This document shows positions 3,065-64,000 of a stretch of DNA of 64,000 bases, in pieces; position 1 is the first letter of the stretch; every line of letters starts with the position of its first letter. The stretch is taken from positions 60,578 to 124,577 of the forward strand of contig JANLSU010000014.1 of the NCBI GenBank assembly GCA_031362565.1, written 5' to 3'. The position numbers were made by a program, and so were the translations under genes. Below the pieces are notes generated by a model, which was given only the letters and a program-made list of their open reading frames with translations, was not told the DNA's origin and did not search any database. This DNA is from a bacterium. Lineage in GTDB: Bacteria; Krumholzibacteriota; Krumholzibacteriia; G020349025.

Positions 3065-4666
3065 CTAAAGTTCGAGCCGGGTGGTCACGAGTACGGCCGG
3101 GGATGTGCGGGAGGGCGCCGTCGCACTGTGGCCAGCGTGCCGGATGGTCAGGGCCCGCACATCGAGCCCGAACTCGATGCTCCGCAGCCCGTGGTAGGCG
3201 ATCGCAATCCCGGGCTGCGACCGGCTTTCGACGACGCCCGACAAGTAACCGACGTTGTCGGATACGCGCTGGTCGTGATCCACCGCGAGCCCACCCTCGC
3301 CGTGGCGTTCTAGTTCATAAAACAAGCGCGCTTCGAAGCCGCGCGACAGCCGGCGGCGGAGTGCCACATCCCACAGATCGCTGTCCGGCCCCGTGCGGCT
3401 GCCGAGCGTGCCACCGAAGTGCTGATAGCGGTCGATCGGATGGACGTGGGTGTAGGTGAACTGGCTCGCCCAACTCCACTCCGCCTCCACGTCCCAGTCG
3501 CCGAGGCCGAAGGGGGCGAGCCATCTCGCCCCGGCCAACACGCCGAGTTTGTTGCCGTAGTTGCGCCACCCACGGCGCAAGTTGAGATCGTCGATGACGC
3601 ACTCGCCATAGAGTTCGCCGCCCGACGCGATGCGCCAGCGCCCGTCGACGCTCGCGAGGGCGTTGTCGAGGTCGCCATTGTTGGCCTGGGTCACGAAGAG
3701 CACCGTCAGGGGATTCACGTACGACAAGTCGAGGCCGCGATTGCCGTAAATCAACGCTTCGGAAACGGCGAGGCGCAGGCGCGGATGCGGCTCGATCTCG
3801 AGCCGGTGCGCGGCGAGATAACGTTCGCGCAATTCCGGGTCGCCGGGCAGGAGGCGCGCGGCGCGCAACTGGCCGGCCAGGCTGGTAAAACGTACCGGCC
3901 CGAGGCGCATCTGCAGGCGCAGCAAGTCGAAGGGCGGGGTTGCGTCCTGCAACAACATCGCGTTCGAACGGCCCGGTCCCCAGCGCAAACGCATCCTTGC
4001 CAGATCGAGCCGCCAACGGCCCGATTCGAAACGCACCCCGGGCTCGACGGTCCGGGTGATTGCGAACCGGTCGCTCGGGTCGAAGACGAACTGCGCTTCA
4101 CCGTCCCGCACATCGGTCGACTGGGCGAGCGATGCATCGCCGGTGCGAACGCGATACGCGACATGCTCGAAGGCCAGCAAGCGGCCGTCGAAGAGCGCCA
4201 GCGCGGCGGCGGGTTCGAGGGTCGTGTGCGCCGTGACATCCCGGTCGGCGCTGCCGCCGTGCTTCTCGAAGCGCTGGCCGCCTTCCCAAAACGCTTGCAG
4301 GCGCCAACCGGTGCCCGTCCAAAGGTGATAGGCCCGGCCGAGCACCGCCGTCGTGTCGCCGGCGGCCGTCAGTTCGGCGGCGAACTCGGCCCGCAGCATA
4401 TCGATCTGTTGGGATTCGATCGGCGTCGGGCGCCAGGCGCCGCGGCGGGCACCGTCGGTGAGGCCCCGGACCATCGTCGCCGCTTCACCGCGGGTGATTG
4501 GCCGCAAATCCAAGAAAGTGCGCGGCACGGCGCCGCGGACTTCGAGCCGTTCCAGAAACTCGTACGACCAGTGTCCGAGTGGTACATCGAGGTGTTCGAA
4601 GGCAAACGCCGGCCGGGCGATCAAGAGCCCCACGACGAGCACCAAAAGCTGTTTCAACCGGAACAT
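3065..4666 (-). CDS. Capsule assembly Wzi-family outer-membrane protein
   Basis: Signal peptide; RWGPG, AHRLE, SEALIYG..YVNP and NNGD.DN motifs. Confidence 0.7.
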   Translation of the reverse strand: MFRLKQLLVLVVGLLIARPAFAFEHLDVPLGHWSYEFLERLEVRGAVPRTFLDLRPITRGEAATMVRGLTDGARRGAWRPTPIESQQIDMLRAEFAAELTAAGDTTAVLGRAYHLWTGTGWRLQAFWEGGQRFEKHGGSADRDVTAHTTLEPAAALALFDGRLLAFEHVAYRVRTGDASLAQSTDVRDGEAQFVFDPSDRFAITRTVEPGVRFESGRWRLDLARMRLRWGPGRSNAMLLQDATPPFDLLRLQMRLGPVRFTSLAGQLRAARLLPGDPELRERYLAAHRLEIEPHPRLRLAVSEALIYGNRGLDLSYVNPLTVLFVTQANNGDLDNALASVDGRWRIASGGELYGECVIDDLNLRRGWRNYGNKLGVLAGARWLAPFGLGDWDVEAEWSWASQFTYTHVHPIDRYQHFGGTLGSRTGPDSDLWDVALRRRLSRGFEARLFYELERHGEGGLAVDHDQRVSDNVGYLSGVVESRSQPGIAIAYHGLRSIEFGLDVRALTIRHAGHSATAPSRTSPAVLVTTRLEL

Positions 4667-4810: not shown

Positions 4811-6799
4811 ATGAACTTCGAACCTGATGAGCCGGAACCCAAAGGCGAAGACGCGGCAGACGGTCCGGCGCTCGAGGCGCCCAGTTCCCCGCTCGTCGAG
4901 AAGGCCCGCCAGTTGCCGGAAGAGCCCGGCGTCTATCTCTTCAAAGATGGCCGCGGCAAGGTGCTCTATGTCGGCAAAGCCAAGGTGCTCCGCGACCGGG
5001 TGCGGAGCTATTTGGGCGCCGCAGCGGATCTCGCACCCAAGACGCGCGTCCTCATGGGACGCGCCCAGGACCTCGACTGGATCGTCACCCGCACCGAAGT
5101 CGACGCGCTCGTCCTCGAATGCAATCTCATCAAGGAATACCGGCCGCGTTACAACATTCGCTTGCGCGATGACAAGAAGTACCCGTACGTCCGCGTCACC
5201 GTCGATGAATTCCCGCGCGTGTTCGCGACCCGCAACATCGTCCACGACGGCAGCGAGTACTTCGGCCCTTATTCCGATGTCGGCGCCATGCGCCGGACGC
5301 TGTCGACCCTACAGCGCGTCCTGCCGACGCGCCCGTGCACTCCCGATACCCTGGACGGCATCGACCGGCCGTGCCTGTACTACGACATTCACATGTGTGG
5401 GGCGCCGTGCGTCGGGTTGCAAAGCCGCGAGGATTACCTGGAGACCGTCGATGGGGTGCGGCTTTTCCTGCGCGGCAAGACCGACGAACTGGCGACGCGG
5501 CTCCGCAAACGCATGGAGGCCTTGGCCGCCGGCCGCCAATACGAGGCCGCGGCACGGGTCCGCGATCAGATTCACGCCATCGATCGCATCACCGATCGCA
5601 TGCGGGCCGTCGTTGGCGAGGGCGTCGAACGCGATGCGGTGGCACTCAGGCGCGATGGGCCGAACGCCTGCGGCGTCATTCTGGCGATTCGCGGCGGCCG
5701 GCTCTTGGCGAGCGAAACGTTCTATTTCTCGGATCGCGACGAAAGCGACATCGAGGTCTTCACCGCCTTCATCGAGCAGTACTACAACGCCACGGTCTCG
5801 GTGCCCGAAGAGATTTTCCTGAGTGCGGAGGTCGAAGACCACGATCTCTTGCAGCGCTGGCTGACCGAGAAGCGTGGTGGGCCGGTGAGCGTGGTCCAGC
5901 CGCAGCGTGGTGAGAAGCGCACGCTGGTCGGTCTGGCGCTCAAGAATGCCACGCTCAAGCTCGACGAACGGCTCATCGCGCAGGGGGTCACATCGAAGCG
6001 GGTGCCGGACGATGTCGTGCAATTGGGCGCCGCACTCGGCATGCGTGAACTGCCGCGCCACATCGAGTGCTTCGATATCTCCAATTTCCAGGGGTCGTCG
6101 CCGGTCGCGTCGCTGGTGCATTTCGAGGCCGGCCAGCCGGCCAAGAAAAACTACAAGCACTTCCGGATCCGCGGCATCGAGGCGCCGAACGATTTCGCGA
6201 TGATGGAACATGTCGTGGAACGGCACTTCCGGGCGCTGCGCGATGGCGCGGCGGCGCTGCCCGAACTCGTCATGGTGGACGGCGGGCGCGGCCAATTGAG
6301 TGCCGCGGAGCGCGCTCTCTCCCGGCTCGGCCTTGCCGACCGCGTCACTCTGATCGGACTCGCCAAGCGCTACGAGGAGATCTACCGGGTGGGCAACCCC
6401 GAACCGCTGCTGTTGGCGCGCACGTCGGCGGCGCTCAAACTCGTCCAGCGGGTGCGCGACGAAGCGCATCGCTTCGCCATTTCCTATCATCGCCGCCTGC
6501 GCGACCGTGAACTCATGCATTCGGCACTCGATGACATCCCCGGGATCGGTGCCAAGACCCGCTTGGCGCTCTTGCGGCACTTTGGTTCGGTAGCGCGCAT
6601 CGCGGTGGCGAGCGCCCAGGACTTGGCGGCGGTGACCGGCGTCGGCGCCATCACCGCCGAGCGCATCTTGAGTGTGCTGTCGCATCCGGCGTTGCGCCCG
6701 GTGCCGGACGGGACGCCGGTGGCGGTGCCGGGTGACGACGACACGAGCGAGGAAATCGTCCTCGACGCCGAGTGGATGGCGCCGGACGGGCCCTCATGA
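4811..6799 (+). CDS. uvrC: Excinuclease ABC subunit C
   Basis: GIY-YIG (PGVYLF..LYVGKA), IECFDISN, DGGRGQ, RDEAHRFA, HhH. Confidence 0.97.
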   Translation: MNFEPDEPEPKGEDAADGPALEAPSSPLVEKARQLPEEPGVYLFKDGRGKVLYVGKAKVLRDRVRSYLGAAADLAPKTRVLMGRAQDLDWIVTRTEVDALVLECNLIKEYRPRYNIRLRDDKKYPYVRVTVDEFPRVFATRNIVHDGSEYFGPYSDVGAMRRTLSTLQRVLPTRPCTPDTLDGIDRPCLYYDIHMCGAPCVGLQSREDYLETVDGVRLFLRGKTDELATRLRKRMEALAAGRQYEAAARVRDQIHAIDRITDRMRAVVGEGVERDAVALRRDGPNACGVILAIRGGRLLASETFYFSDRDESDIEVFTAFIEQYYNATVSVPEEIFLSAEVEDHDLLQRWLTEKRGGPVSVVQPQRGEKRTLVGLALKNATLKLDERLIAQGVTSKRVPDDVVQLGAALGMRELPRHIECFDISNFQGSSPVASLVHFEAGQPAKKNYKHFRIRGIEAPNDFAMMEHVVERHFRALRDGAAALPELVMVDGGRGQLSAAERALSRLGLADRVTLIGLAKRYEEIYRVGNPEPLLLARTSAALKLVQRVRDEAHRFAISYHRRLRDRELMHSALDDIPGIGAKTRLALLRHFGSVARIAVASAQDLAAVTGVGAITAERILSVLSHPALRPVPDGTPVAVPGDDDTSEEIVLDAEWMAPDGPS

Positions 6800-7713
6800 G
6801 CGCCCCCATCGCATCACTCACGCCACTCGCCGCGGCGCGCGAACGCTATCTCGTCCATCTGATGGTCGAACGCGGCCTCGCCCGGCTGACCCTGGACGCC
6901 TACGCCGCCGACCTCGAAGCGTACGGCGCATTCCTGGCCGGGCTCGGCGTCAGCGCCCCGGGTGACGTCGTGGCGACGCACATTCACGAGTACCTGGCGG
7001 CGGCGACCGCCGCCGAACACACCGCTAGCACGCGCGCCCGGCGGCTCTCGACGCTGCGCGGCTTCCATCGCTTTTGTGTGTTGGAGGGCCTCGCTGCCGA
7101 TTCACCGGTCGAGCGCTGGCGGGGTCCGCGCCGCACCCGGCCCTTGCCGCACGTTCTGCGGGTGCATGAAATCGAGCGCCTGGTCGCGGCCCCGGACCCG
7201 TCGACCGCACTCGGACAGCGCGATCGCGCCCTGCTCGAACTGGCCTATGCGGCCGGATTGCGTGCCTCCGAAGCCTGCGACCTGTTGGTGGAGGCTTTCG
7301 ACGCGCGCGCGGCGCTGGTGCGGGTGTTCGGCAAAGGCTCGAAGGAGCGTTTGGTGCCGGTCGGCCGCGCCGCTCTTGCGGCCGTGGCCGCCTATTTGAG
7401 CGACGGGCGGATCCGGCTGACGCGGGGCCGCATTGCGCCGACGCTCTTCCTGAACACCCGCGGCACGCGGCTGTCGCGCATGGGGTTTTGGAAAATCCTG
7501 CAAAAAAACCTGCGCGCCGCCGACATCCGCACGCCGGCGAGCCCGCACACGCTGCGCCACAGCTTTGCAACCCATCTGTTGGAAGGCGGCGCCGATCTGC
7601 GCGTCGTCCAGGAACTGCTCGGGCACGCCGATATCGGCACCACCCAGATCTATACCCAAGTCGATCGCCAGTACCTGACCGAGGTGTACCGGACGTACCA
7701 TCCGCGCGGCTGA
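6796..7713 (+). CDS. xerD: Tyrosine recombinase XerD
   Basis: GLRASE, GKGSKERLVP, SPHTLRHSFATHLLEGGADLRVVQELLGH, TTQIYT, YHPRG end. Confidence 0.9.
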   Translation: MSAPIASLTPLAAARERYLVHLMVERGLARLTLDAYAADLEAYGAFLAGLGVSAPGDVVATHIHEYLAAATAAEHTASTRARRLSTLRGFHRFCVLEGLAADSPVERWRGPRRTRPLPHVLRVHEIERLVAAPDPSTALGQRDRALLELAYAAGLRASEACDLLVEAFDARAALVRVFGKGSKERLVPVGRAALAAVAAYLSDGRIRLTRGRIAPTLFLNTRGTRLSRMGFWKILQKNLRAADIRTPASPHTLRHSFATHLLEGGADLRVVQELLGHADIGTTQIYTQVDRQYLTEVYRTYHPRG

Positions 7714-10493: not shown

Positions 10494-11203
10494 ACCAGTA
10501 CTTGGCGGCGTGCGGCCTCGGGAGCCGCCGCGATTGCGAAGCGCTCATCGCCGCCGGCCGCGTCCACGTCAACGGCGCGCCGGGGCATTTCGGAATGCGC
10601 GTCGGCACGAGCGACACGGTGGCGCTGGACGGACGAACGCTGGCCATGGAGGCCACCGGATCCGTGTGGCTGATGCACAAGCCGGCGCGGGTTTTGTCGG
10701 CGGCACGCGACGCCGAGGGCCGCACGACAGTTCTCGATGTGGCGCGGCGTGCCGGCATCACCACCCGCGTCTTCTCGGTGGGCCGGCTCGACTACGAAAC
10801 GACGGGGCTCCTGCTTCTGACCGACGACGGCGATCTCGCGTTCGCACTCACCCATCCGTCGAAGGGGGTCGAGAAGGAATACGAGGCGCGGATCGCGGCG
10901 CCGCTTGCCGCCAGAGCGCTGGAGCGCTTGGCGGCGGGAATCGAACTGGAAGATGGACCCACGGCGCCGTGCGACGCGGCGCAGGAGATTGCCGCCGGCC
11001 AAGTCACCGTGCGGCTGGTGTTGCATGAAGGCCGCAAGCGGCAAGTGCGCCGCATGCTGACGGCGGTCGGCGCGCCGGTTCTGGCATTGCACCGAGTGCG
11101 CGTCGGCCCGGTGCGGCTCGGCGATCTAGCCCCCGGGGCAGTGCGGCGCGCCACCCCGGCGGAAGATACAGCGTTACGTCGCACCGCTGGCTTGGAGCTC
11201 TAA
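10484..11203 (+). CDS. rRNA pseudouridine synthase (RluB/RsuA family)
   Basis: S4 domain; GRLDYETTGLLLLTDDG; EGRKRQVRRM; follows scpAB. Confidence 0.92.
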   Translation: MRLNQYLAACGLGSRRDCEALIAAGRVHVNGAPGHFGMRVGTSDTVALDGRTLAMEATGSVWLMHKPARVLSAARDAEGRTTVLDVARRAGITTRVFSVGRLDYETTGLLLLTDDGDLAFALTHPSKGVEKEYEARIAAPLAARALERLAAGIELEDGPTAPCDAAQEIAAGQVTVRLVLHEGRKRQVRRMLTAVGAPVLALHRVRVGPVRLGDLAPGAVRRATPAEDTALRRTAGLEL

Positions 11204-11212
11204 GGGAGCATC

Positions 11213-12268
11213 GTGCGCATCGTCTTCCGGCCGAACGCCACGCGCGCCCAAATCGATCGCGTCGAACAGTTGCTCGTGCAACTGCGATACCGCTCACGGC
11301 GCTCGAAGGGTGAAGAAGGTGTGGTGATCGGCGTCGTCGGCGACACGTCGCTGCTCGTGTCGCGGCAAATCGACCGCATGCCCGGGGTCGCCAAGCTGGC
11401 ACCGTTCACCGTGCCGTACAAACAGGCGAGCCGCGAGTACAGCCAAGAGCGCAGCGTGGTGCGCGTCGGTGCTCTGGCCGTCGGCGGCACGAGCGCCATC
11501 GCCGTCATGGCCGGCCCGTGCTCGGTCGAGAGCCACGAGGGCCTCTTTGCGGTGGCGCGGCGCGTCAAAGCCGCCGGCGCGTCTTTTCTGCGCGGCGGCG
11601 CTTTCAAGCCGCGCACCTCGCCGTATTCATTCCAGGGCCTGGGGCGCGAAGGGCTCGAACTCTTGCGGAGCGCCGGTGATGACACCGGCCTGGCGGTCGT
11701 GACCGAAGTCATGGATACGCGCCACGTGGATCTTTTGGCCCAGTATTCCGACGTTCTGCAAGTCGGCGCTCGCAATGTTCAAAACTTCGATCTGTTGCGC
11801 GAAGTGGGTGCCTCGGGCAAGCCCGTGCTCCTCAAGCGCGGCCTCATGACGACCATCGAGGAATACTTGCTCTGCGCCGAATACATTCTGGCAACGGGCA
11901 ACGAGCAGGTCATCTTGTGCGAACGCGGCATTCGGACTTTCGATACCGCGACCCGGAACACGCTCGATGTCTGCGCCGTGCCGGTGATTCAGCGCTTCAG
12001 CCACTTGCCCATCATTGTCGACCCGAGCCATGCGACGGGCGACTGGCACTACGTGATTCCGATGGCCCGCGCCGCGGTCGCGGCCGGCGCCGATGGCCTG
12101 ATGATCGAAGTGCATCCGAATCCCGCCGCGGCTTTCAGCGACGGACCGCAGTCGTTGACGCCGGACCGATTCGATCAGCTCATGCGCGAGGTGGCGCCGC
12201 TCGCCGCGGCGGTCGGCCGCAAACTCGACCAACATGCGGCGGCACGTGGCCGGGCCGAACCCTCATGA
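11213..12268 (+). CDS. aroF: 3-deoxy-7-phosphoheptulonate synthase (type I-beta, N-terminal regulatory domain)
   Basis: [35 protein letters not shown]. Confidence 0.94.
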
Positions 12269-57576: not shown

Positions 57577-59337
57577 ATGCGTATTGTTTCAGACATTACA
57601 TGCGATTGGCGCGAGTCGCCCCTGAAGTTGGGGCACCACGGTAATGGCGAATGCGAGGTTCGGTTGTCCGGTCGAATCGACCTGTACTGGAACACGTTTC
57701 GGCATTTGAAGCGTGAGCAGATCGTGCATCGAGCGTTGCGCGTGCTGCGGTTTCGCGGCGTCGGCCCGGTGCCGGAAGGGCTTGTCGAGGCCGACGGCTG
57801 GGAGCCGCGTGTGCCGCGCTGTCCACATGCCGTCCTGGGCCGGCCTCTGGACGGCGTGTTCGTCGCTTGGGGTGAGGAACGTCAGTTGCTCGGCGACGCG
57901 CCGTGGATCGACACCGCCATGAGCACCGCGTGGAATTATCCGGTGCAGTATCTCGATGCAGCGCCCGCGTTGGCGGCGATGGCTCGAGCGTCGGGCGATG
58001 AATCCGAAATCATCAAAGTGCGCGACTGGATGGATCACTGGATTGCCTCACACCAGCCCGGCCGTAACAGCAGCATCAGTTGGGATCCGTATCCGACCGC
58101 ATTGCGAATCGTGAACTTGCTCGACGCCGTCGCGATCCTGGGCCGTTCCGCGCCGGCAACCTGGCGCGAGGGGATTCTGCGCAGCGTTTGGCAACAAAGC
58201 GTGTGGCTGGCGCGGAACGTCGAGATGCACTTGCTCGGCACGCATCTCCTCAAAGACGCCAAAGCCCTCCTCATTGCCGGCAGCGTTTTCGAAGACGGCG
58301 TGGCGCGGCATTGGCGCGAGCTGGGCGAAACGATTCTCCGGCGCGAACTCCCGCGCCAAGTGCGCGCCGACGGCAGCCACGAAGAACCGACCCTGCCATA
58401 TCAAGGCATGGTGCTCGAAGACGTGCTCGATCTGATTAATTTCGCGCCGATCGGCAGCGGCGAGCTCGCCCCGATCCTGCGCACAACGGCCGAACGCTTG
58501 CTCGAATTCGCCCATCAAACGCAAACACCGGCCGGCACAGCGCCACTTCTGGGCGATACCGGCGAGGAACGCGTACCGCCCACGCGCACGCTGCTCGAGT
58601 ACGCAGCGCGGTTGGGATTCACGATTCCGGACGCCGGCGGGGGAGTGCGGCTTCTCGAACCGAGCGGCATCGCCGTTTACCGCGGTCGCCGCCAGTACGT
58701 CCTCGCCGACGTGGGTGGCGTCGGCACCGATCACGTGCCGGGCCACGGTCATTGTGACTCTCTGTCATTCGAGTGGTGGGTCGACGGTGTGCCGATCCTG
58801 GTCGACACCGGAACTCTGTCTTACGTCCAGGGTGCGGCGCGCACCGCGTGCCGCAGCACGCGGGCGCACAACACGATCGAGATCGATGGATACGAACAGC
58901 ACGAAATCTGGGCGGCGTTCCGGGTCGCGCGGCGCGCCACCGTGCGGGCGCGTCTGGACTCGAATGGCGTTGTCGAAGCCGACTTGATTCCGTGGCACGA
59001 CCGCCAGGTTCGTTTGACGCGCCGGTTCGTCTTCGACGAAACCACCACGCGCGTCGAGGACGGCATTGAAGGGCCTGGTTCGCACGGCGTCGTGAGCCGC
59101 ATGCACTTGCACCCGGAGTGCGAAATCGAGCCCGCCGGCCGCACGCTACGCATTCGGCACGGCCGCGCCAACGCCTCGATCCTGATGCCGGAACAGACCG
59201 AGATCCTGGTTCCACCAAGGTCCACGAGCGTCCATTGCGCCGAACCCGGAATCCCGCGCCCGAACATCGAACTGCAAGTCGCATACGACGGTGCGTTGCC
59301 ATGGACATCGATTTGGGAGCTGCGGGTTGGATCGTGA
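57577..59337 (+). CDS. Heparinase II/III-family protein (true start possibly TTG 57664)
   Basis: WDPYPTALRIVN, E.HLLGTHL, DG.H.E, GHGHCD.LSFE, DTG..Y, RST.AHNT. Confidence 0.82.
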   Translation: MRIVSDITCDWRESPLKLGHHGNGECEVRLSGRIDLYWNTFRHLKREQIVHRALRVLRFRGVGPVPEGLVEADGWEPRVPRCPHAVLGRPLDGVFVAWGEERQLLGDAPWIDTAMSTAWNYPVQYLDAAPALAAMARASGDESEIIKVRDWMDHWIASHQPGRNSSISWDPYPTALRIVNLLDAVAILGRSAPATWREGILRSVWQQSVWLARNVEMHLLGTHLLKDAKALLIAGSVFEDGVARHWRELGETILRRELPRQVRADGSHEEPTLPYQGMVLEDVLDLINFAPIGSGELAPILRTTAERLLEFAHQTQTPAGTAPLLGDTGEERVPPTRTLLEYAARLGFTIPDAGGGVRLLEPSGIAVYRGRRQYVLADVGGVGTDHVPGHGHCDSLSFEWWVDGVPILVDTGTLSYVQGAARTACRSTRAHNTIEIDGYEQHEIWAAFRVARRATVRARLDSNGVVEADLIPWHDRQVRLTRRFVFDETTTRVEDGIEGPGSHGVVSRMHLHPECEIEPAGRTLRIRHGRANASILMPEQTEILVPPRSTSVHCAEPGIPRPNIELQVAYDGALPWTSIWELRVGS

Positions 59338-59459
59338 GCTCAGCGCCGGGTCCCGCACCGGCGGAACGAGGCGGCAGGCGAAGGGAACTCGACCCGGAAC
59401 GATTCCGACGCCGCCGGCGCCAAGCCGGAGCGAAATTCCAAGCAACCGGCAGATTTATT

Positions 59460-59487
59460 AGTTTACATAATCCGTCTTATGCGCCAA
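59460..59487 (-). other. dif site (XerC/XerD recombination site), probable provirus att boundary
   Basis: Minus strand TTGGCGCATAA-GACGGA-TTATGTAAACT versus E. coli dif GGTGCGCATAA-TGTATA-TTATGTTAAAT (11-6-11). Confidence 0.88.
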
Positions 59488-59545
59488 ACCAAGAACCGAC
59501 GGGGCGTACTGTAGAAAATCACCCAGCGCGCGTCAACCGAAAAAG

Positions 59546-59576
59546 TCTAACAGGATTCGACCCTCATCCTGTTAGA
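59546..59576. repeat. Perfect 11-bp inverted repeat
   Basis: TCTAACAGGAT-N9-ATCCTGTTAGA. Confidence 0.8.
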
Positions 59577-59667
59577 TCGCGCCCCCTTGTCAGACGCGGC
59601 CCCCAGCCGTGCTAGGATCCGCCCTCACAGCGTTTTCTCTTGGTCTCCACTGCGAGGGAGTCTCTCC

Positions 59668-60072
59668 ATGCGAAAGCTCGTCGCTTCTGTGCTTATCCTG
59701 GCGATCGTCGCCAGTGCCTTCCAAGTCGGACGCGCCGCCGCCGGCAGCCACAAGGGCGCCATGCCGGTCGCGATCGTCTACCCAGGCCCCTTTGTACTCG
59801 ACGACTCAGGGCGATTGTTTCAAAAGAACAACGATGGGTTGGGGTGGACGCAGTTTGCCCAATGCCCGCCCGGCGTGCCAGCGACTATGACCCAGTGGCC
59901 CAGTGACGGGTCCGGATTCAAGTTCTTGGTCGCAATGCAGAATGGTGACGTGTTCATCGGCCCGCACGCGAATCCGACACTCGAGTGGGCGTTTCTAGGG
60001 AACGTATTCAACGATCCAGCGGTCGGAACCTCGAGCAGCACGATCGGCGACTTGAAGCACAGATATCGGTAG
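59668..60072 (+). CDS. Exported hypothetical protein (134 aa), probable provirus cargo
   Basis: GGGAG SD; signal peptide; C-terminus SSTIGDLKHRYR. Confidence 0.75.
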   Translation: MRKLVASVLILAIVASAFQVGRAAAGSHKGAMPVAIVYPGPFVLDDSGRLFQKNNDGLGWTQFAQCPPGVPATMTQWPSDGSGFKFLVAMQNGDVFIGPHANPTLEWAFLGNVFNDPAVGTSSSTIGDLKHRYR

Positions 60073-60073
60073 A

Positions 60074-60814
60074 TCACCAGGAGTGCACGCCGCCCAAACA
60101 GTCGATGAATCCTTGGACCTGGTAGAGCGTCGCGTCGGGCGAAGTGCCCTGAGTGAACTCAACGATGTGAATCGGAACGTCGCCTTCGTAGTGGTAGCCG
60201 ATGAACTTCTGGTAATCCCTGCCCGGCGCTCCGCCGACCGGCAGGTTAACCACCTTCGGCGCTAAAACCCACGTCGTCTGCACGCTGTTCACTCCGGAAA
60301 GATCGACCACGGCAGGACCGACGCCGGCGGTGTCAATCAGCAGGCCGCCGGTCATGGTCCGATACGAGGCGGTGTATTCCTGAGTCGTCATGCCAGCGAT
60401 CTCGCCGGATGCAAGGCCATCGCAGTAAAGCAGATGGTCCGTGGTCTGCACCGACGTCGCGCTTCGGGTGATGATCCGGTCACAGTGACCGACGCGCAGA
60501 ATGTCTACGTACACGTCGACCAGTTTCTTGCTGCCGATAATCATGTCGGACAGGAGAATCCCGAGCGGCGCCATGTAGGAAGCCGAATTCGTGACAACCT
60601 TCGGAATACAGCAACCCTGGCCCATCGGGATGGCGGGGTTGGAGTAGCTTGCAGGCTTCAGGTCGAGGCACACCAGCATTCCCTTGAGGTTGGTGCCGAG
60701 CGAAGCGCCGCCGCCTTCGTCAAGCGTCCATTCGTTGCTCGTCATGTACATACGGCTTACGAGCCGCTCGAATGGGCCTTGCCGGAAGCCGCTGGAAGGA
60801 CCTTCAATGTGCAT
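60074..60814 (-). CDS. Hypothetical beta-rich protein (246 aa), putative spike/receptor-binding protein
   Basis: TAATG coupling with upstream ORF; last gene of structural operon; function inferred from position. Confidence 0.6.
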   Translation of the reverse strand: MHIEGPSSGFRQGPFERLVSRMYMTSNEWTLDEGGGASLGTNLKGMLVCLDLKPASYSNPAIPMGQGCCIPKVVTNSASYMAPLGILLSDMIIGSKKLVDVYVDILRVGHCDRIITRSATSVQTTDHLLYCDGLASGEIAGMTTQEYTASYRTMTGGLLIDTAGVGPAVVDLSGVNSVQTTWVLAPKVVNLPVGGAPGRDYQKFIGYHYEGDVPIHIVEFTQGTSPDATLYQVQGFIDCLGGVHSW

Positions 60815-61239
60815 TAGCTCATCGCCTTGATTGCGACGACCGACAAGATCGCGATCGTGAGGATCGCCGGCCACACAGACGGACCGCCCTCGGCGACGTT
60901 CTTCGCGACCTCGATTACCTTGGCCGTCGACTGCTCGACAGGCCCCGGCACCTGCGTTCGAGGCGAGAGCGCGATCGCGCTCGGGAGGTTCAAGCCGCTG
61001 AACTGACCAGAGAAAGCGACGCGGCCGCGCTTTTTGCCGTTCTGGAGATCGGTCCAGATGCCGTCGATGTCGGGCGTGCGATACTTCGGATTCGGGGTCT
61101 CGCCGGCGCCGTCGAACACGCGGCCATTCGGCAGATTGGCGAGCACGGTGCGGCTCGTCACGACCTGGGTGCGCCGGTCGAGCTCGTCCTTCATCTGATC
61201 GCCCATCACCATCGCCAGGCGTAGACTTGCCGTGCTCAT
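60814..61239 (-). CDS. Hypothetical protein with C-terminal TM anchor (141 aa)
   Basis: WPAILTIAILSVVAIK; ATGA coupling. Confidence 0.7.
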   Translation of the reverse strand: MSTASLRLAMVMGDQMKDELDRRTQVVTSRTVLANLPNGRVFDGAGETPNPKYRTPDIDGIWTDLQNGKKRGRVAFSGQFSGLNLPSAIALSPRTQVPGPVEQSTAKVIEVAKNVAEGGPSVWPAILTIAILSVVAIKAMS

Positions 61240-61391
61240 TGTTTCGCTGCCTCCCGCGACTTCCGGAAGTGATAACCGCCCAAGCCCGCCGTCGCGCCGA
61301 TGTAGATTCCAAGTGCAATACCATCGATGCCGCAGTGCAGCGCGTACGCTTCGATCCCCGTAAGAGCCACAATCGCGAGAACGGTCTTCAT
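61236..61391 (-). CDS. Small membrane protein (51 aa), possibly holin-like
   Basis: MKTVLAIVALTGIEAYALHCGIDGIALGIYIGATAGLGGYHFRK...; ATGA overlaps on both sides. Confidence 0.68.
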   Translation of the reverse strand: MKTVLAIVALTGIEAYALHCGIDGIALGIYIGATAGLGGYHFRKSREAAKQ

Positions 61392-61534
61392 TCGCCCCTC
61401 GCGATCAGAGCCAATGCACCGATGGTGTTCAGGACCGCGAACGTCAGAGCCACGCCACGCAGCACGCCGTGCGTCTTCCACGCGATCACGCCGGCGACGC
61501 CGGCGATTGCCAGGCTGCGGGTTGAAATCTTCAT
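61388..61534 (-). CDS. Small membrane protein (48 aa; not in ORF track)
   Basis: MKISTRSLAIAGVAGVIAWKTHGVLRGVALTFAVLNTIGALALIARGE; ATGA overlaps on both sides. Confidence 0.68.
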   Translation of the reverse strand: MKISTRSLAIAGVAGVIAWKTHGVLRGVALTFAVLNTIGALALIARGE

Positions 61535-61881
61535 GCGTGAACCGCCTTCGCGAGCATTCCAGTGAGAACGGCAGTCGAGCTGCCGACCAGGATGACGGCC
61601 TTCCAGCCGCCGTAGACGTGGTAGTGGCGCGCGGTGCCCTTCTCATGCAGCTCGACCGTATAGCCGAGAGCCGTCAGCACGTCGCGCTTTGCCTGCGATG
61701 TCTCGATGCCCATATCGACAGCGCCGCCGACCAAGTGCAGCGACGTCGGCGACGCGGACGTGGTCGCCTTGTTCTGGGCGGGAGTCCGCTTCCAGTCGGT
61801 CACGCGAATGTGCAGCAGGTCAGCCAGCGCGCGCAGCATGTGCCCGCCGATGACGTATTGCGTGCGGTCGCCTTCGATCAT
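61531..61881 (-). CDS. Peptidase M15-like zinc peptidoglycan hydrolase with hydrophobic C-terminal tail
   Basis: R-T-x-x-Q-N, SLHLVGGAVD (SxHxxGxAxD) and HYH. Confidence 0.75.
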   Translation of the reverse strand: MIEGDRTQYVIGGHMLRALADLLHIRVTDWKRTPAQNKATTSASPTSLHLVGGAVDMGIETSQAKRDVLTALGYTVELHEKGTARHYHVYGGWKAVILVGSSTAVLTGMLAKAVHA

Positions 61882-61894
61882 GGCGGGTCTCGCC

Positions 61895-62242
61895 TCAGTG
61901 CTTCAGAACTGCGAACGCGCCCACCAGAATGGCGGCAGCGAATAGAATCGTGATCAGCGAAATCACGTCGGAGGCGTTCTCGACGGTTTTCTTGGCCGTG
62001 GCACCGCCGTTGTAGACGGCGCCGGCCAACGTCGGCGACGTGCTGAACGCGATGTCGATCGCTTTCTTTGGGTCGCTCCTGATGAACGCGACCGCGTCCT
62101 TCACTTCGTCCCAGTACGAATGCCCGACGCTCGTGCCGGTTGCCTGGTCGAGCGCTTTGCCGCCGCGCAGCGCGGCCGCGTGCGTCGAGGTTGCGCCGGG
62201 CAGATCCTTGATCGAGGTGACGAAGTCGAACTTGGTGCTCAC
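61895..62242 (-). CDS. Hypothetical protein with C-terminal TM anchor (115 aa)
   Basis: VISLITILFAAAILVGAFAVLK; GTGA coupling. Confidence 0.7.
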   Translation of the reverse strand: MSTKFDFVTSIKDLPGATSTHAAALRGGKALDQATGTSVGHSYWDEVKDAVAFIRSDPKKAIDIAFSTSPTLAGAVYNGGATAKKTVENASDVISLITILFAAAILVGAFAVLKH

Positions 62243-62397
62243 TTGCGCCTCCGGGCGACGAGCCAGATCACGACGATCGCGAGCCCGATGCCGGCGACGA
62301 GCTTCATGTTCACGCCACCCGGCAGCTTGAGCGTGTTCTTCTGCGTGGATCGGGCGTTGTCGTCCGCCTCTGCCACCAAGGCCTCGAGCGAGTTCAT
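62239..62397 (-). CDS. Small protein with C-terminal TM and basic tail (52 aa)
   Basis: LVAGIGLAIVVIWLVARRRK; ATGA coupling. Confidence 0.7.
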   Translation of the reverse strand: MNSLEALVAEADDNARSTQKNTLKLPGGVNMKLVAGIGLAIVVIWLVARRRK

Positions 62398-62696
62398 TGC
62401 TTGCGCGTCATCAGGTAGACGGCTGTGAGCCCGCCACCGACGCCGAGAATCCACTTCCACGGCGGCCCGGTTGCGGTGGCCGGCGACTTCGAAGCATCGA
62501 GAACCCGCTGCGCATCCATCTGCGCCGCCTGGTTCGCTTCCTGCGGTGTCGCGGTGCCGCCTGCGACAGACTTGACAGCGTTCGAAGCCGCATTCACGGC
62601 ACCAACGACGATGTTGCCGCCCGGCACTGTGGCCTTGACGATATTGCCGATCGCCTTGCCGATTTTCAGTTTCTTGATTTTCGAGAAGAAGCCCAC
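62394..62696 (-). CDS. Putative virion membrane protein (100 aa): amphipathic basic N-terminus, C-terminal TM
   Basis: MGFFSKIKKLKIGKAIGNIVK...WKWILGVGGGLTAVYLMTRK; GGGAG SD before GTG. Confidence 0.72.
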   Translation of the reverse strand: MGFFSKIKKLKIGKAIGNIVKATVPGGNIVVGAVNAASNAVKSVAGGTATPQEANQAAQMDAQRVLDASKSPATATGPPWKWILGVGGGLTAVYLMTRKQ

Positions 62697-62721
62697 GACC
62701 GTCTCCCTGGGTGGAAGGACT

Positions 62722-62749
62722 GGCGGCGCGCCGCTATGGACGCGCCGCC
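62722..62749. promoter_or_regulatory. GC-rich hairpin directly downstream of the putative capsid gene
   Basis: GGCGGCGCG-N10-CGCGCCGCC, no U-tract. Confidence 0.55.
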
Positions 62750-62765
62750 GTCCCCACCTGTTCGA

Positions 62766-63722
62766 TCACGCGGCCGCTAACTGCTGCAGCGTGAAGACCT
62801 CTTCGATCTTGCCGGCACGGAGCTTCCGCGCGACCTTGGCCTTCACGACTTCGCCGGACGCCTGCACCGTACGGTCGCGCTTCTTCGAATCGAAGACCGC
62901 GGACAGGATCAGGTGACGCACCACGACGGCGCCGGTCGCGGTCGTCGTAATGACGACGTCGTCCGACAGGACTTCCGTGATCTCGCCCAGGCGCGCGAGC
63001 TTCGTCTCGAAGCAACGCACGTAGCTGCCTTCGATGCGGTTGTCCCAGTTGCTCATCGATTGCAGAACGCCGACCTGGATCGAACTGGATTCCTGGCCGT
63101 CCTTCTTGATCGCGAGCTCCGTGAAGTTGGCGGACGGAGTGATCAGCAGACTTTTGGCGGTACCGTTGTTCACGCCCCAGCCGCGATCGGTGTAGATCGC
63201 GACCACGTTGTCCTGCGGGACGACGCGCCGGTCCTTCGATGCGGCCGAGAAGTCCTGATTGAGCTGAATCATGTACAGCGAGTAATTTTCCTCGCCGGCG
63301 TCGACGGTGACGCCGTACAGCTCGACCAGCGCGCCGGCCACGACCGATGCCGTGAAATTCGGCCCGAATTGCAGCGTGATCTGTGCGCGGTCGGTCGTCT
63401 CGACGGCTTCGACGGTTCCATCGCCATAGCCGCGCGGTATGAAGACCGACATCGCGAATGGAAGGTTGATTGCGGTGTCGCCCGTGCACTCGACCTCGCC
63501 GCCGATCTTTTCGTTCATGAAATGAATCATGTCGAAGTCGGCGTCTACGATCACTTGCGAGCCGTGACGGTAGAACACGTGACCGACCTCGCCGATCGCG
63601 AGGAACTGGGCGGCGGCCTGCGTTCCCGAAATGCGAAGCAGGAAGTAGTCGTAGGTCTCGGGATCGATGTCCGCTTGGAACACTGCACCCGTCGCCGTTT
63701 TGGATGCGAGCAGCTTGCGCAT
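62766..63722 (-). CDS. Putative double-jelly-roll major capsid protein (318 aa)
   Basis: Size; two beta-rich halves; C-terminal basic helix; no signal peptide or TM; recalled resemblance to FLiP-type MCP; flanked by small TM genes. Confidence 0.62.
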   Translation of the reverse strand: MRKLLASKTATGAVFQADIDPETYDYFLLRISGTQAAAQFLAIGEVGHVFYRHGSQVIVDADFDMIHFMNEKIGGEVECTGDTAINLPFAMSVFIPRGYGDGTVEAVETTDRAQITLQFGPNFTASVVAGALVELYGVTVDAGEENYSLYMIQLNQDFSAASKDRRVVPQDNVVAIYTDRGWGVNNGTAKSLLITPSANFTELAIKKDGQESSSIQVGVLQSMSNWDNRIEGSYVRCFETKLARLGEITEVLSDDVVITTTATGAVVVRHLILSAVFDSKKRDRTVQASGEVVKAKVARKLRAGKIEEVFTLQQLAAA

Positions 63723-63726
63723 GGTG

Positions 63727-63834
63727 TTACGCCACCACCGCGGGGAACTTCTTCGACAGCTTGGCCGTCACGATCCCGGCCACAACGCCGGCGAAGACGG
63801 TCACTGCGAAGAAGATGATCTTCTCCTTGGACAT
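63727..63834 (-). CDS. Tiny single-TM protein (35 aa; not in ORF track)
   Basis: MSKEKIIFFAVTVFAGVVAGIVTAKLSKKFPAVVA; AGGAGG SD; ends 4 nt before capsid-like gene. Confidence 0.72.
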   Translation of the reverse strand: MSKEKIIFFAVTVFAGVVAGIVTAKLSKKFPAVVA

Positions 63835-63854
63835 TTTTCGATTCCCTCCTACAC

Positions 63855-63889
63855 AAAAAAACCGGGTCGCCCTGTTACAGGCGCCCGGT
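63855..63889 (-). terminator. Intrinsic terminator-like hairpin plus U-tract immediately upstream of the structural operon
   Basis: Minus strand ACCGGGCGCCTGTAACAGGGCGACCCGG followed by TTTTTTT. Confidence 0.65.
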
Positions 63890-64000
63890 CCGGGTTCGAA
63901 GAGAAGTCGAACACGGTCAGGGGGGGCACTCCTAGAAGTTTCCCCCTATGTCAGGGTTTAGACCCCCTCTTTACGAACTTCCCGGCACGCCCGTGGGTCG

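Follow-up and report, generated by a model that had tools for sequence, protein, structure and literature searches.

A divergent double jelly-roll capsid protein of a putative PM2-type prophage at the dif site of a Krumholzibacteriia-like bacterium

Introduction

Tailless phages with double jelly-roll (DJR) capsid proteins are under-detected, as these proteins diverge past the point of recognition by sequence. One candidate is encoded near the end of the 64,000-nt stretch of DNA analysed here (the window), which is C70:60578-124577 of contig C70 in the source assembly (G000) of a Krumholzibacteriia-like bacterium; C70 stops at the last base of the window, 278 nt upstream of the gene. A preliminary description read the product of 318 amino acids (aa) as a divergent DJR major capsid protein, closest to that of phage FLiP. 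Is the protein a viral coat, to which lineage of tailless viruses does it belong, and how does its gene come to lie in this chromosome? We present it here as very probably the coat of a PM2-type phage, small, tailless and with a membrane, whose prophage lies in dif, the site at which the host resolves chromosome dimers. Viruses of this kind are already known, as are the fold and the route of integration, and the finding leaves the known workings of such capsids and integrations unchanged. The novelty lies in the capsid family, which is divergent and unnamed and now has an anchored host outside the Proteobacteria.

Predicted fold of the capsid protein

The open reading frame (ORF) is real: it lies on the minus strand, begins with ATG, and has a codon-position GC of 0.61/0.41/0.83, typical of coding DNA in this host genome of 65% GC; in the long ORFs that overlap it in other frames, this pattern is inverted. 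The gene is single-copy in G000. An AlphaFold2 model of the monomer, computed from an alignment (A1) of the query with 80 of its 104 relatives, reached a mean predicted local distance difference test (pLDDT) score of 92.5 and a predicted template modelling (pTM) score of 0.90. It shows a double jelly roll: two eight-stranded jelly rolls follow each other in a single chain, with strands at residues 2–139 (interrupted by a helix at 63–74) and 148–276 (helix at 217–227), and two helices after the second strand block at the C-terminus.

The features that the preliminary description had read from the letters all have their place in this model. The beta strands fall into two halves, and the strings GEENYSLYM, QDNVVAIY and FTELAIKKD are located at residues 143, 170 and 200. 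The proposed linker (143–151) falls exactly between the halves, and its G143 and Y147 reach a conservation of 90% or more across the family. The highest 19-residue Kyte–Doolittle mean is 1.55, under the 1.6 that we used as the threshold for a transmembrane (TM)-like segment, in agreement with the claim that the protein has none. The basic C-terminal helix corresponds to two predicted helices, H279–302 and H306–317, and the last 40 residues hold 10 K/R versus 4 D/E. The loop at 181–199, where model confidence is low, is probably exposed.

The prediction of a three-copy complex passed with a score of 0.89 versus 0.00 for the best control, the mark being one that 20 of 30 solved pairs and 1 of 23 single chains reached. 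At least 90% of the contacts were common to the runs, and the partner pLDDT was at least 81. In the predicted trimer, the chains form a ring in head-to-tail fashion, each packing its jelly roll 2 against jelly roll 1 of its neighbour; the C-terminal helices also touch the neighbouring chains. This pass may reflect a likeness to, or a memory of, solved DJR trimers. The two predictions that had been proposed as a check, of the monomer and of the trimer, thus gave a double jelly roll and a trimeric assembly.

In the structure comparison, viral capsid proteins score 17–23 against the monomer model. The preliminary description had named a fold without two beta-sandwiches, or best matches among cellular enzymes or tailed-phage proteins, as signs against a capsid; the model has two sandwiches, and its best matches are capsid proteins of tailless viruses. 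A rival reading takes the protein for a cellular, double jelly-roll-like enzyme of the GH172/DUF2961 type. We regard this reading as negligible in view of these scores, of the location of the gene beside those of small membrane proteins, in an element with an attachment (att) site at either end, of a relative flanked by genes for a Rep protein, a packaging ATPase and a lysin (see below), and of the absence of the gene from the 207 other genomes of the host's phylum that were searched. The DJR capsid call for the 318-aa protein is confirmed.

A divergent and unnamed capsid family

When 1.84 billion cluster representatives were searched exhaustively with phmmer, 107 proteins matched at E ≤ 1e-3, 40 of them at E ≤ 1e-10. 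All except three are relatives of about 300 aa (104 of 107), mostly 270–330 aa long and mostly aligned end to end. The three others (P0095, P0097 and P0101), long repeat proteins whose match spans only about 40 residues, were set aside; they were left out of A1 together with fragments and partial matches. In A1, conservation is 90% or higher at G33, G47, G75, N103, G143, Y147 and N172; the family alignments contain no stretch of 7–10 conserved residues. P0002 and P0057 were the only additions from word-indexed homologue searches. Of the ten nearest clusters, each comprises one or two sequences, all metagenomic and without a functional name, one member being labelled "hypothetical protein"; three of their capsid genes (P0004, P0007 and P0009) lie on contigs of 10.8–11.3 kb.

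The protein had no match in Pfam or PHROGs at E ≤ 1 and none among PDB sequences at E ≤ 10. In tblastn searches of 50,697 deposited phage records, the query (E ≤ 1) and the family members P0063 and P0053 (E ≤ 0.1) remained unmatched. Neither 60 relatives of the host nor the 207 genomes mentioned above yielded the gene. A search with a three-sequence alignment found no locus in viral or genome contigs and one metagenome locus, designated L003; searches with the single members P0009 and P0006 found no locus in viral contigs. The family is very divergent and unnamed, being named by no Pfam or PHROG model.

Affinity to PM2

L003 (metagenome record CXWL01005291.1, 13.4 kb) is the sole relative with genomic context; its capsid protein is 39% identical to that of the window (E 5e-63). 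It encodes a 574-aa Rep (Rep_1 at 3e-21), an SLT lysin and, just ahead of the capsid gene, an ATPase of 331 aa with matches to phrog_2666 (3.6e-20) and, among PDB entries, to HerA and the STIV packaging ATPase B204 (1e-5 to 6.5e-4); tblastn of this ATPase against the deposited phages found nothing at E ≤ 1e-3. A 33-aa TM ORF directly before the capsid gene shares 12 identical residues with the 35-aa protein of the window (z 3.3), and a 93-aa protein (10961–11242) is homologous to the 100-aa protein of the window (32 identical residues, z 8.8).

The sequence signals within the family go to the coat protein P2 of PM2. Among the 104 members, 13 have colinear, sub-threshold matches to its Pfam families at E ≤ 0.05 (11 to P2_C in the second half, 3 to P2_N in the first half); at E ≤ 0.01, 6 P2_C and 2 P2_N matches remain among the 81 sequences of A1. 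P0063 matches both and is the sole member at the Pfam cut-off (25.5 versus 25 bits), and the query does not attain the gathering score of P2_N (PF18628) or P2_C (PF25513). The nearest ESM Atlas clusters carry P2_N/P2_C (score 0.96), a lead only, given the low recognition (1597). These signals suggest a distant sister group of the P2 families, not a member of them. A hidden Markov model of the capsid family matched neither the PM2 genome nor the FLiP genome.

Gene order tells the same story. The annotated order in PM2 is P9 ATPase, P7 (34 aa), P2, P3 (104 aa), P4 and P8; in the window, a 35-aa TM protein, the capsid gene, a 100-aa protein and small proteins with C-terminal TM anchors follow one another. 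The structural module of the PM2 type (ATPase, small TM protein, capsid gene, small membrane proteins) is thus found, its ATPase being seen only in L003. In PMC5894146 (Yutin et al. 2018), six groups of prokaryotic DJR viruses are distinguished, the conserved pair of the PM2 group is a capsid protein with an FtsK-like ATPase, rolling-circle Reps occur, and the FLiP and Odin groups are described without an ATPase. Because of the faint P2 signal, the gene order and the gene content of L003, we place the element with PM2.

The closeness to FLiP that the preliminary description had proposed did not hold. A phage of the FLiP (Finnlakeviridae) type would be a single-stranded DNA (ssDNA) phage that has no packaging ATPase and builds its capsid round ssDNA made by rolling-circle replication. 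The capsid proteins of STIV and PRD1, with a sequence identity of 9–10%, outscore that of FLiP (PDB 5oac) in the structure comparison, and the hhalign alignment of A1 to the FLiP protein covers only 104 columns (E 0.02). No sequence relationship to the FLiP protein was shown. The relative L003 has a HerA/B204-like ATPase gene directly before its capsid gene, unlike the FLiP group as described in the source cited above, and the sub-threshold Pfam signals point to P2. Taken together, an origin from a FLiP-like phage is highly unlikely.

Another possibility is a capsid of the tectivirus type (PRD1/Bam35), with a linear genome and a protein-primed DNA polymerase. The structural alignment begins only at residue 38 of the PRD1 protein P3, and our protein is about 70 residues shorter, without the N-terminal extension of P3. 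L003 has a rolling-circle Rep, no polymerase domain was found on it, and the element is integrated with dif-like junctions. We give a tectivirus very little credence. As for STIV (Turriviridae), its host is archaeal.

A PM2-type phage is thus the preferred reading, within which the element differs from PM2 (Corticoviridae, Vinavirales) in several respects. There is no significant direct sequence similarity between the two coat proteins; P2 has 269 aa as against 318 aa here, and the long basic pair of C-terminal helices is a feature of the protein described here. The lysins also differ, a putative zinc peptidase in the window and an SLT lysin in L003, and the host here appears to be Krumholzibacteriia-like rather than a gammaproteobacterium. 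The LeuRS encoded in the window shares 73% identity with that of a Candidatus Krumholzibacteriia MAG, as against 59% for the runner-up, which makes this class the probable one of the host.

Integration at dif

The prophage junction in the window is a complete dif-like site, AGTTTACATAA-TCCGTC-TTATGCGCCAA, present once in G000. With at most three mismatches, it was found in 14 of 25 related genomes, once in each except for two copies in G010; the reversed control gave 0. Cumulative GC skew along C70 climbs to about 108 kb and then flattens, which is compatible with a nearby terminus but no proof of it. The site resembles the Vibrio dif consensus as quoted in PMC12715192. We take it as the dif of the host. 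The two dif-like sites of G010 lie at C50:3-30, at a contig end, and at C46:4774-4801; this could mark another Xer-dependent element. The sequences on either side of dif show no conservation between G000 and four relatives, so that comparison could not reconstruct the empty site.

A search of G000 with one arm plus the central region (17 nt) gave one further exact copy, at C9:21672-21688, against a chance expectation of 6e-4. This copy continues into CGCGGTAAACT as a degenerate second arm; the end of C9 is 1.37 kb away. On its left are chromosomal genes, read from their translations as those of a sigma-70-type factor and a beta-propeller protein; on its right, small unannotated genes run off the contig. 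Proteins of this tail showed only weak colinear matches to L003 proteins (E 0.28 and 0.037), which we do not count as evidence. Dif-like sites are thus present at both junctions, one of them a canonical dif; they lie on separate contigs, and we infer their linkage. The arm kept by the element is of the GCGCATAA type, which, going by the dif of E. coli, we take to be the arm of XerC.

L003 carries a corresponding attP-like site. Its TTGGCGCAGAAGAAGGA agrees in 17 of 17 bases with the dif of G001 and G006, two genomes of the same bacterial family as G000 (chance expectation 1.4e-6); an unrelated 11-mer comes next, and the orientation is that seen on C9. Whether relatives of the capsid gene also flank dif had been raised as a check at the outset; in L003, a dif-like site is indeed found at the matching place and in the matching orientation. 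The match suggests which lineage hosts this relative.

Two Xer-type tyrosine recombinase genes of the host lie on the same contig as dif, with 328 bits to XerD (just under the cut-off of 329.6) and 276 bits to XerC. Neither the Pfam scans of window genes nor that of 17 ORFs on L003 revealed an integrase domain. Moreover, the dif-type DJR prophages of Vibrio and the one-armed, 17-bp attP of PM2 presented in PMC12715192 offer a precedent. Because of the dif-like junctions, the host Xer genes, the site in L003 and this precedent, we propose that the element was integrated by the XerC/XerD of its host. It has its own traits: the 17-mer as published for PM2 retains the other arm, and P15/P16 regulators adjoin attP in PM2 and the Vibrio dif-type prophages, whereas here a secreted-protein gene does.

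The unassembled middle of the element

Between the ends of C9 and C70, a stretch of about 5 kb with the Rep and ATPase genes would be expected by analogy with L003. The terminal 20–55 nt of C70 or C9 were not common to any other contig. Matches to phrog_2666 on C123, C90 and C129 were inspected and lie in large, cellular-looking open frames. The 32 contigs shorter than 9 kb gave 99 ORFs that passed a filter on GC at third codon positions (GC3); those inspected looked cellular, and none meaningfully matched L003 proteins.

These results bear on a further rival, in which the element is a decayed or truncated prophage remnant that makes no particles and whose middle is truly absent. In its favour, Rep and ATPase were not found in an assembly of 5.4 Mb that is rated 100% complete by marker genes. 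On the other hand, both att sites lie near contig ends and the genes of the element run off these ends, as expected of an assembly gap; the 11 genes of the element in the window are all intact, with host-like GC3; and the public contigs of the best-covering sequencing run also stop near window position 63996, at a depth of about 4. We therefore consider a remnant unlikely and retain a PM2-type prophage with an unassembled middle as the better account.

Based on the models and on the analogy with L003 and PM2, the life of such a phage may be outlined as follows. The capsid protein, with its two vertical jelly rolls, would form the predicted ring-shaped trimers, and these would be the pseudo-hexameric capsomers from which an icosahedral shell is built around a lipid vesicle. 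Seven small proteins with a TM-like segment by the Kyte–Doolittle criterion (35, 73, 115, 116, 48, 51 and 141 aa) fit a virion with an internal membrane; they may populate the vesicle, and the basic C-terminal helices of the capsid protein may face it. Together with the ATPase and Rep of L003, they suggest a circular double-stranded DNA (dsDNA) genome with an internal membrane. The genome, of some 11–12 kb, would be replicated by the rolling-circle Rep and packaged by an ATPase of the HerA/FtsK type, whose gene would closely precede that of the capsid. Its attP would mimic one arm and the centre of the host dif and be recombined by XerC/XerD, in the manner of integrative mobile elements exploiting Xer (IMEX); after recombination, the junction in the window would be a complete dif and the one on C9 would carry the degenerate arm of the phage.

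Several points weigh against this account. The virion, the membrane and the excision are predicted rather than observed. The hhalign alignment of A1 with PM2 P2, colinear over 217 columns, has an E-value of 0.041 and is not significant. Searches of G000 with the ATPase and Rep proteins of L003, phrog_2666 and PF01446 gave no convincing Rep or ATPase hit, the blank of PF01446 being uninformative, as this model was also silent in 14 of 14 control genomes. With the middle unseen, the completeness, the dsDNA or ssDNA type and the absence of an integrase are unproven for this copy, and the public contigs showed no joint and no piece spanning the region. In the element, no single jelly-roll vertex protein was identified, and the lysin call for the 116-aa protein is weak (E 0.0021).

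The public contigs also break at 59460/59489, but similar breaks occur every 0.5–1 kb and say nothing on excision. Over window positions 58500–64000, their depth, given as one figure per contig, is about 4–7 over the prophage as against about 7–12 over the chromosomal flank. At most, this hints that some cells lack the prophage.

Implications

The combination of a confident fold, gene order and att sites rescues a gene that Pfam, PHROGs and BLAST had left blank, and a capsid family otherwise confined to metagenomes gains an anchored host in a candidate phylum. DJR lysogeny that targets dif, documented in Vibrio, is suggested to reach far beyond the Proteobacteria; if so, the range of this lysogeny would grow from Vibrio and Pseudoalteromonas to a distant uncultured phylum. 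The 17-bp match between attP and dif may likewise serve as a link from uncultured DJR phage contigs to host lineages. Full-text literature matches for Krumholzibacteri* with prophage carried neither term in title or abstract. More tentatively, as a view to which we give somewhat less than even weight, the family of about 104 clusters may stand for a lineage of PM2-like (Vinavirales-grade) membrane phages that is new at the family level, the present copy being the first virus tied to a Krumholzibacteriia-like host, with Xer/dif lysogeny extended to this phylum and the match in 17 of 17 bases acting as a key to the host.

Other features of the element

The features of the element and its surroundings are collected in Table 1. 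ORF extents were corrected by frame-specific GC3, which showed that the listed ORFs of 432 aa (at the 246-aa gene) and 136 aa (at the 51-aa gene) are over-extended.

Table 1. Features of the prophage, its junctions and its relative (window positions unless a contig or locus is named)
Feature	Position	Strand	Remarks
Major capsid protein, 318 aa	62766..63722	-	ATG start; coding-type GC
Parts of the capsid protein	residues of the 318-aa protein		jelly roll 1 ~1-139; linker 143-151; jelly roll 2 ~148-276; basic C-terminal helices 279-317
Host dif, prophage junction restoring the full dif	59460..59487	+	AGTTTACATAA-TCCGTC-TTATGCGCCAA; single copy in G000
Second dif-like site	C9:21672-21699		17/17 bases (arm and centre), then CGCGGTAAACT matching 7/11 of the other arm
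Presumed other end of the prophage	C9:21672-23062 (L022 6673-8063)		dif-like site, Cys-rich 112-aa ORF, secreted 184-aa ORF, 67-aa ORF, ~76-aa ORF, start of a further ORF off the contig
attP-like site of L003	L003 3231-3247 (region 3231-3258)		TTGGCGCAGAAGAAGGA; intergenic, beside the 158-aa gene
Xer-type tyrosine recombinase genes	6841-7707 (C70:67418-68284) and C70:54195-55046		same contig as dif
Terminator-like hairpin	63852..63891	-	13-bp stem, one bulge, U7 run; just upstream of the GGAGG ribosome-binding site of the 35-aa gene
35-aa single-TM protein	63727..63834	-	adjoins the capsid gene upstream; corresponds in position to PM2 P7 (34 aa); GC3 0.92; TM 3-27, Kyte–Doolittle 2.52
100-aa protein	62394..62696	-	at the position of PM2 P3 (104 aa); basic N-terminus MGFFSKIKKLK, hydrophobic C-terminus; GC3 0.76
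Small protein, ~73 aa	62239..62460	-	C-terminal TM 46-72; start uncertain, probably internal
115-aa protein	61895..62242	-	C-terminal TM anchor 87-115; GC3 0.84
Putative zinc peptidase lysin, 116 aa	61531..61881	-	hydrophobic C-terminus; PHROG endolysin phrog_894, E 0.0021 only
48-aa TM protein	61388..61534	-	TM 24-46; frame-specific GC3
51-aa TM protein	61236..61391	-	TM 4-22; frame-specific GC3
141-aa protein	60814..61239	-	C-terminal TM anchor 118-141; GC3 0.85
Beta-rich soluble protein, 246 aa, candidate vertex/spike	60074..60814	-	frame-specific GC3; start overlaps upstream stop (TAATG)
Signal-peptide protein, 161 aa as listed	59587..60072	+	likely start M28; convergent to the other genes; last element gene by the att site
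Heparinase II/III-like protein	57577-59337	+	last chromosomal gene before dif; Pfam 1.7e-37

Upstream of the 35-aa gene, the hairpin has a predicted RNA folding energy of -37.3 kcal/mol (z -4.3; none of 200 shuffles equally stable), and it was not listed by a simple consensus terminator scan. It implies a transcription boundary before the structural operon. The 100-aa protein fails the Kyte–Doolittle TM test (maximum 1.23). The 116-aa protein has no Pfam or PDB sequence match; its H-x6-D and H-x-H motifs, read by eye, are presumably those of a zinc peptidase. The 246-aa protein has one relative, P0113, at 45% identity. Its fold prediction failed (pLDDT 30.6), and its ESM Atlas neighbours, clusters of viral beta-sandwich "cement" proteins, are a lead only.

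The 161-aa protein has a hydrophobic segment at 24–53 and is homologous to the product of the 158-aa gene of L003 (2645–3121, minus strand; 31% identity, E 1e-11), which has the same placement in the opposite orientation. Since this homologue is equally placed, we assign the 161-aa gene to the element. L003 also contains tandem repeat pairs of about 61–65 bp, 83% identical, at 6459–6590 and 2136–2260; the pair at the end of the Rep gene could be an origin or iteron-like.
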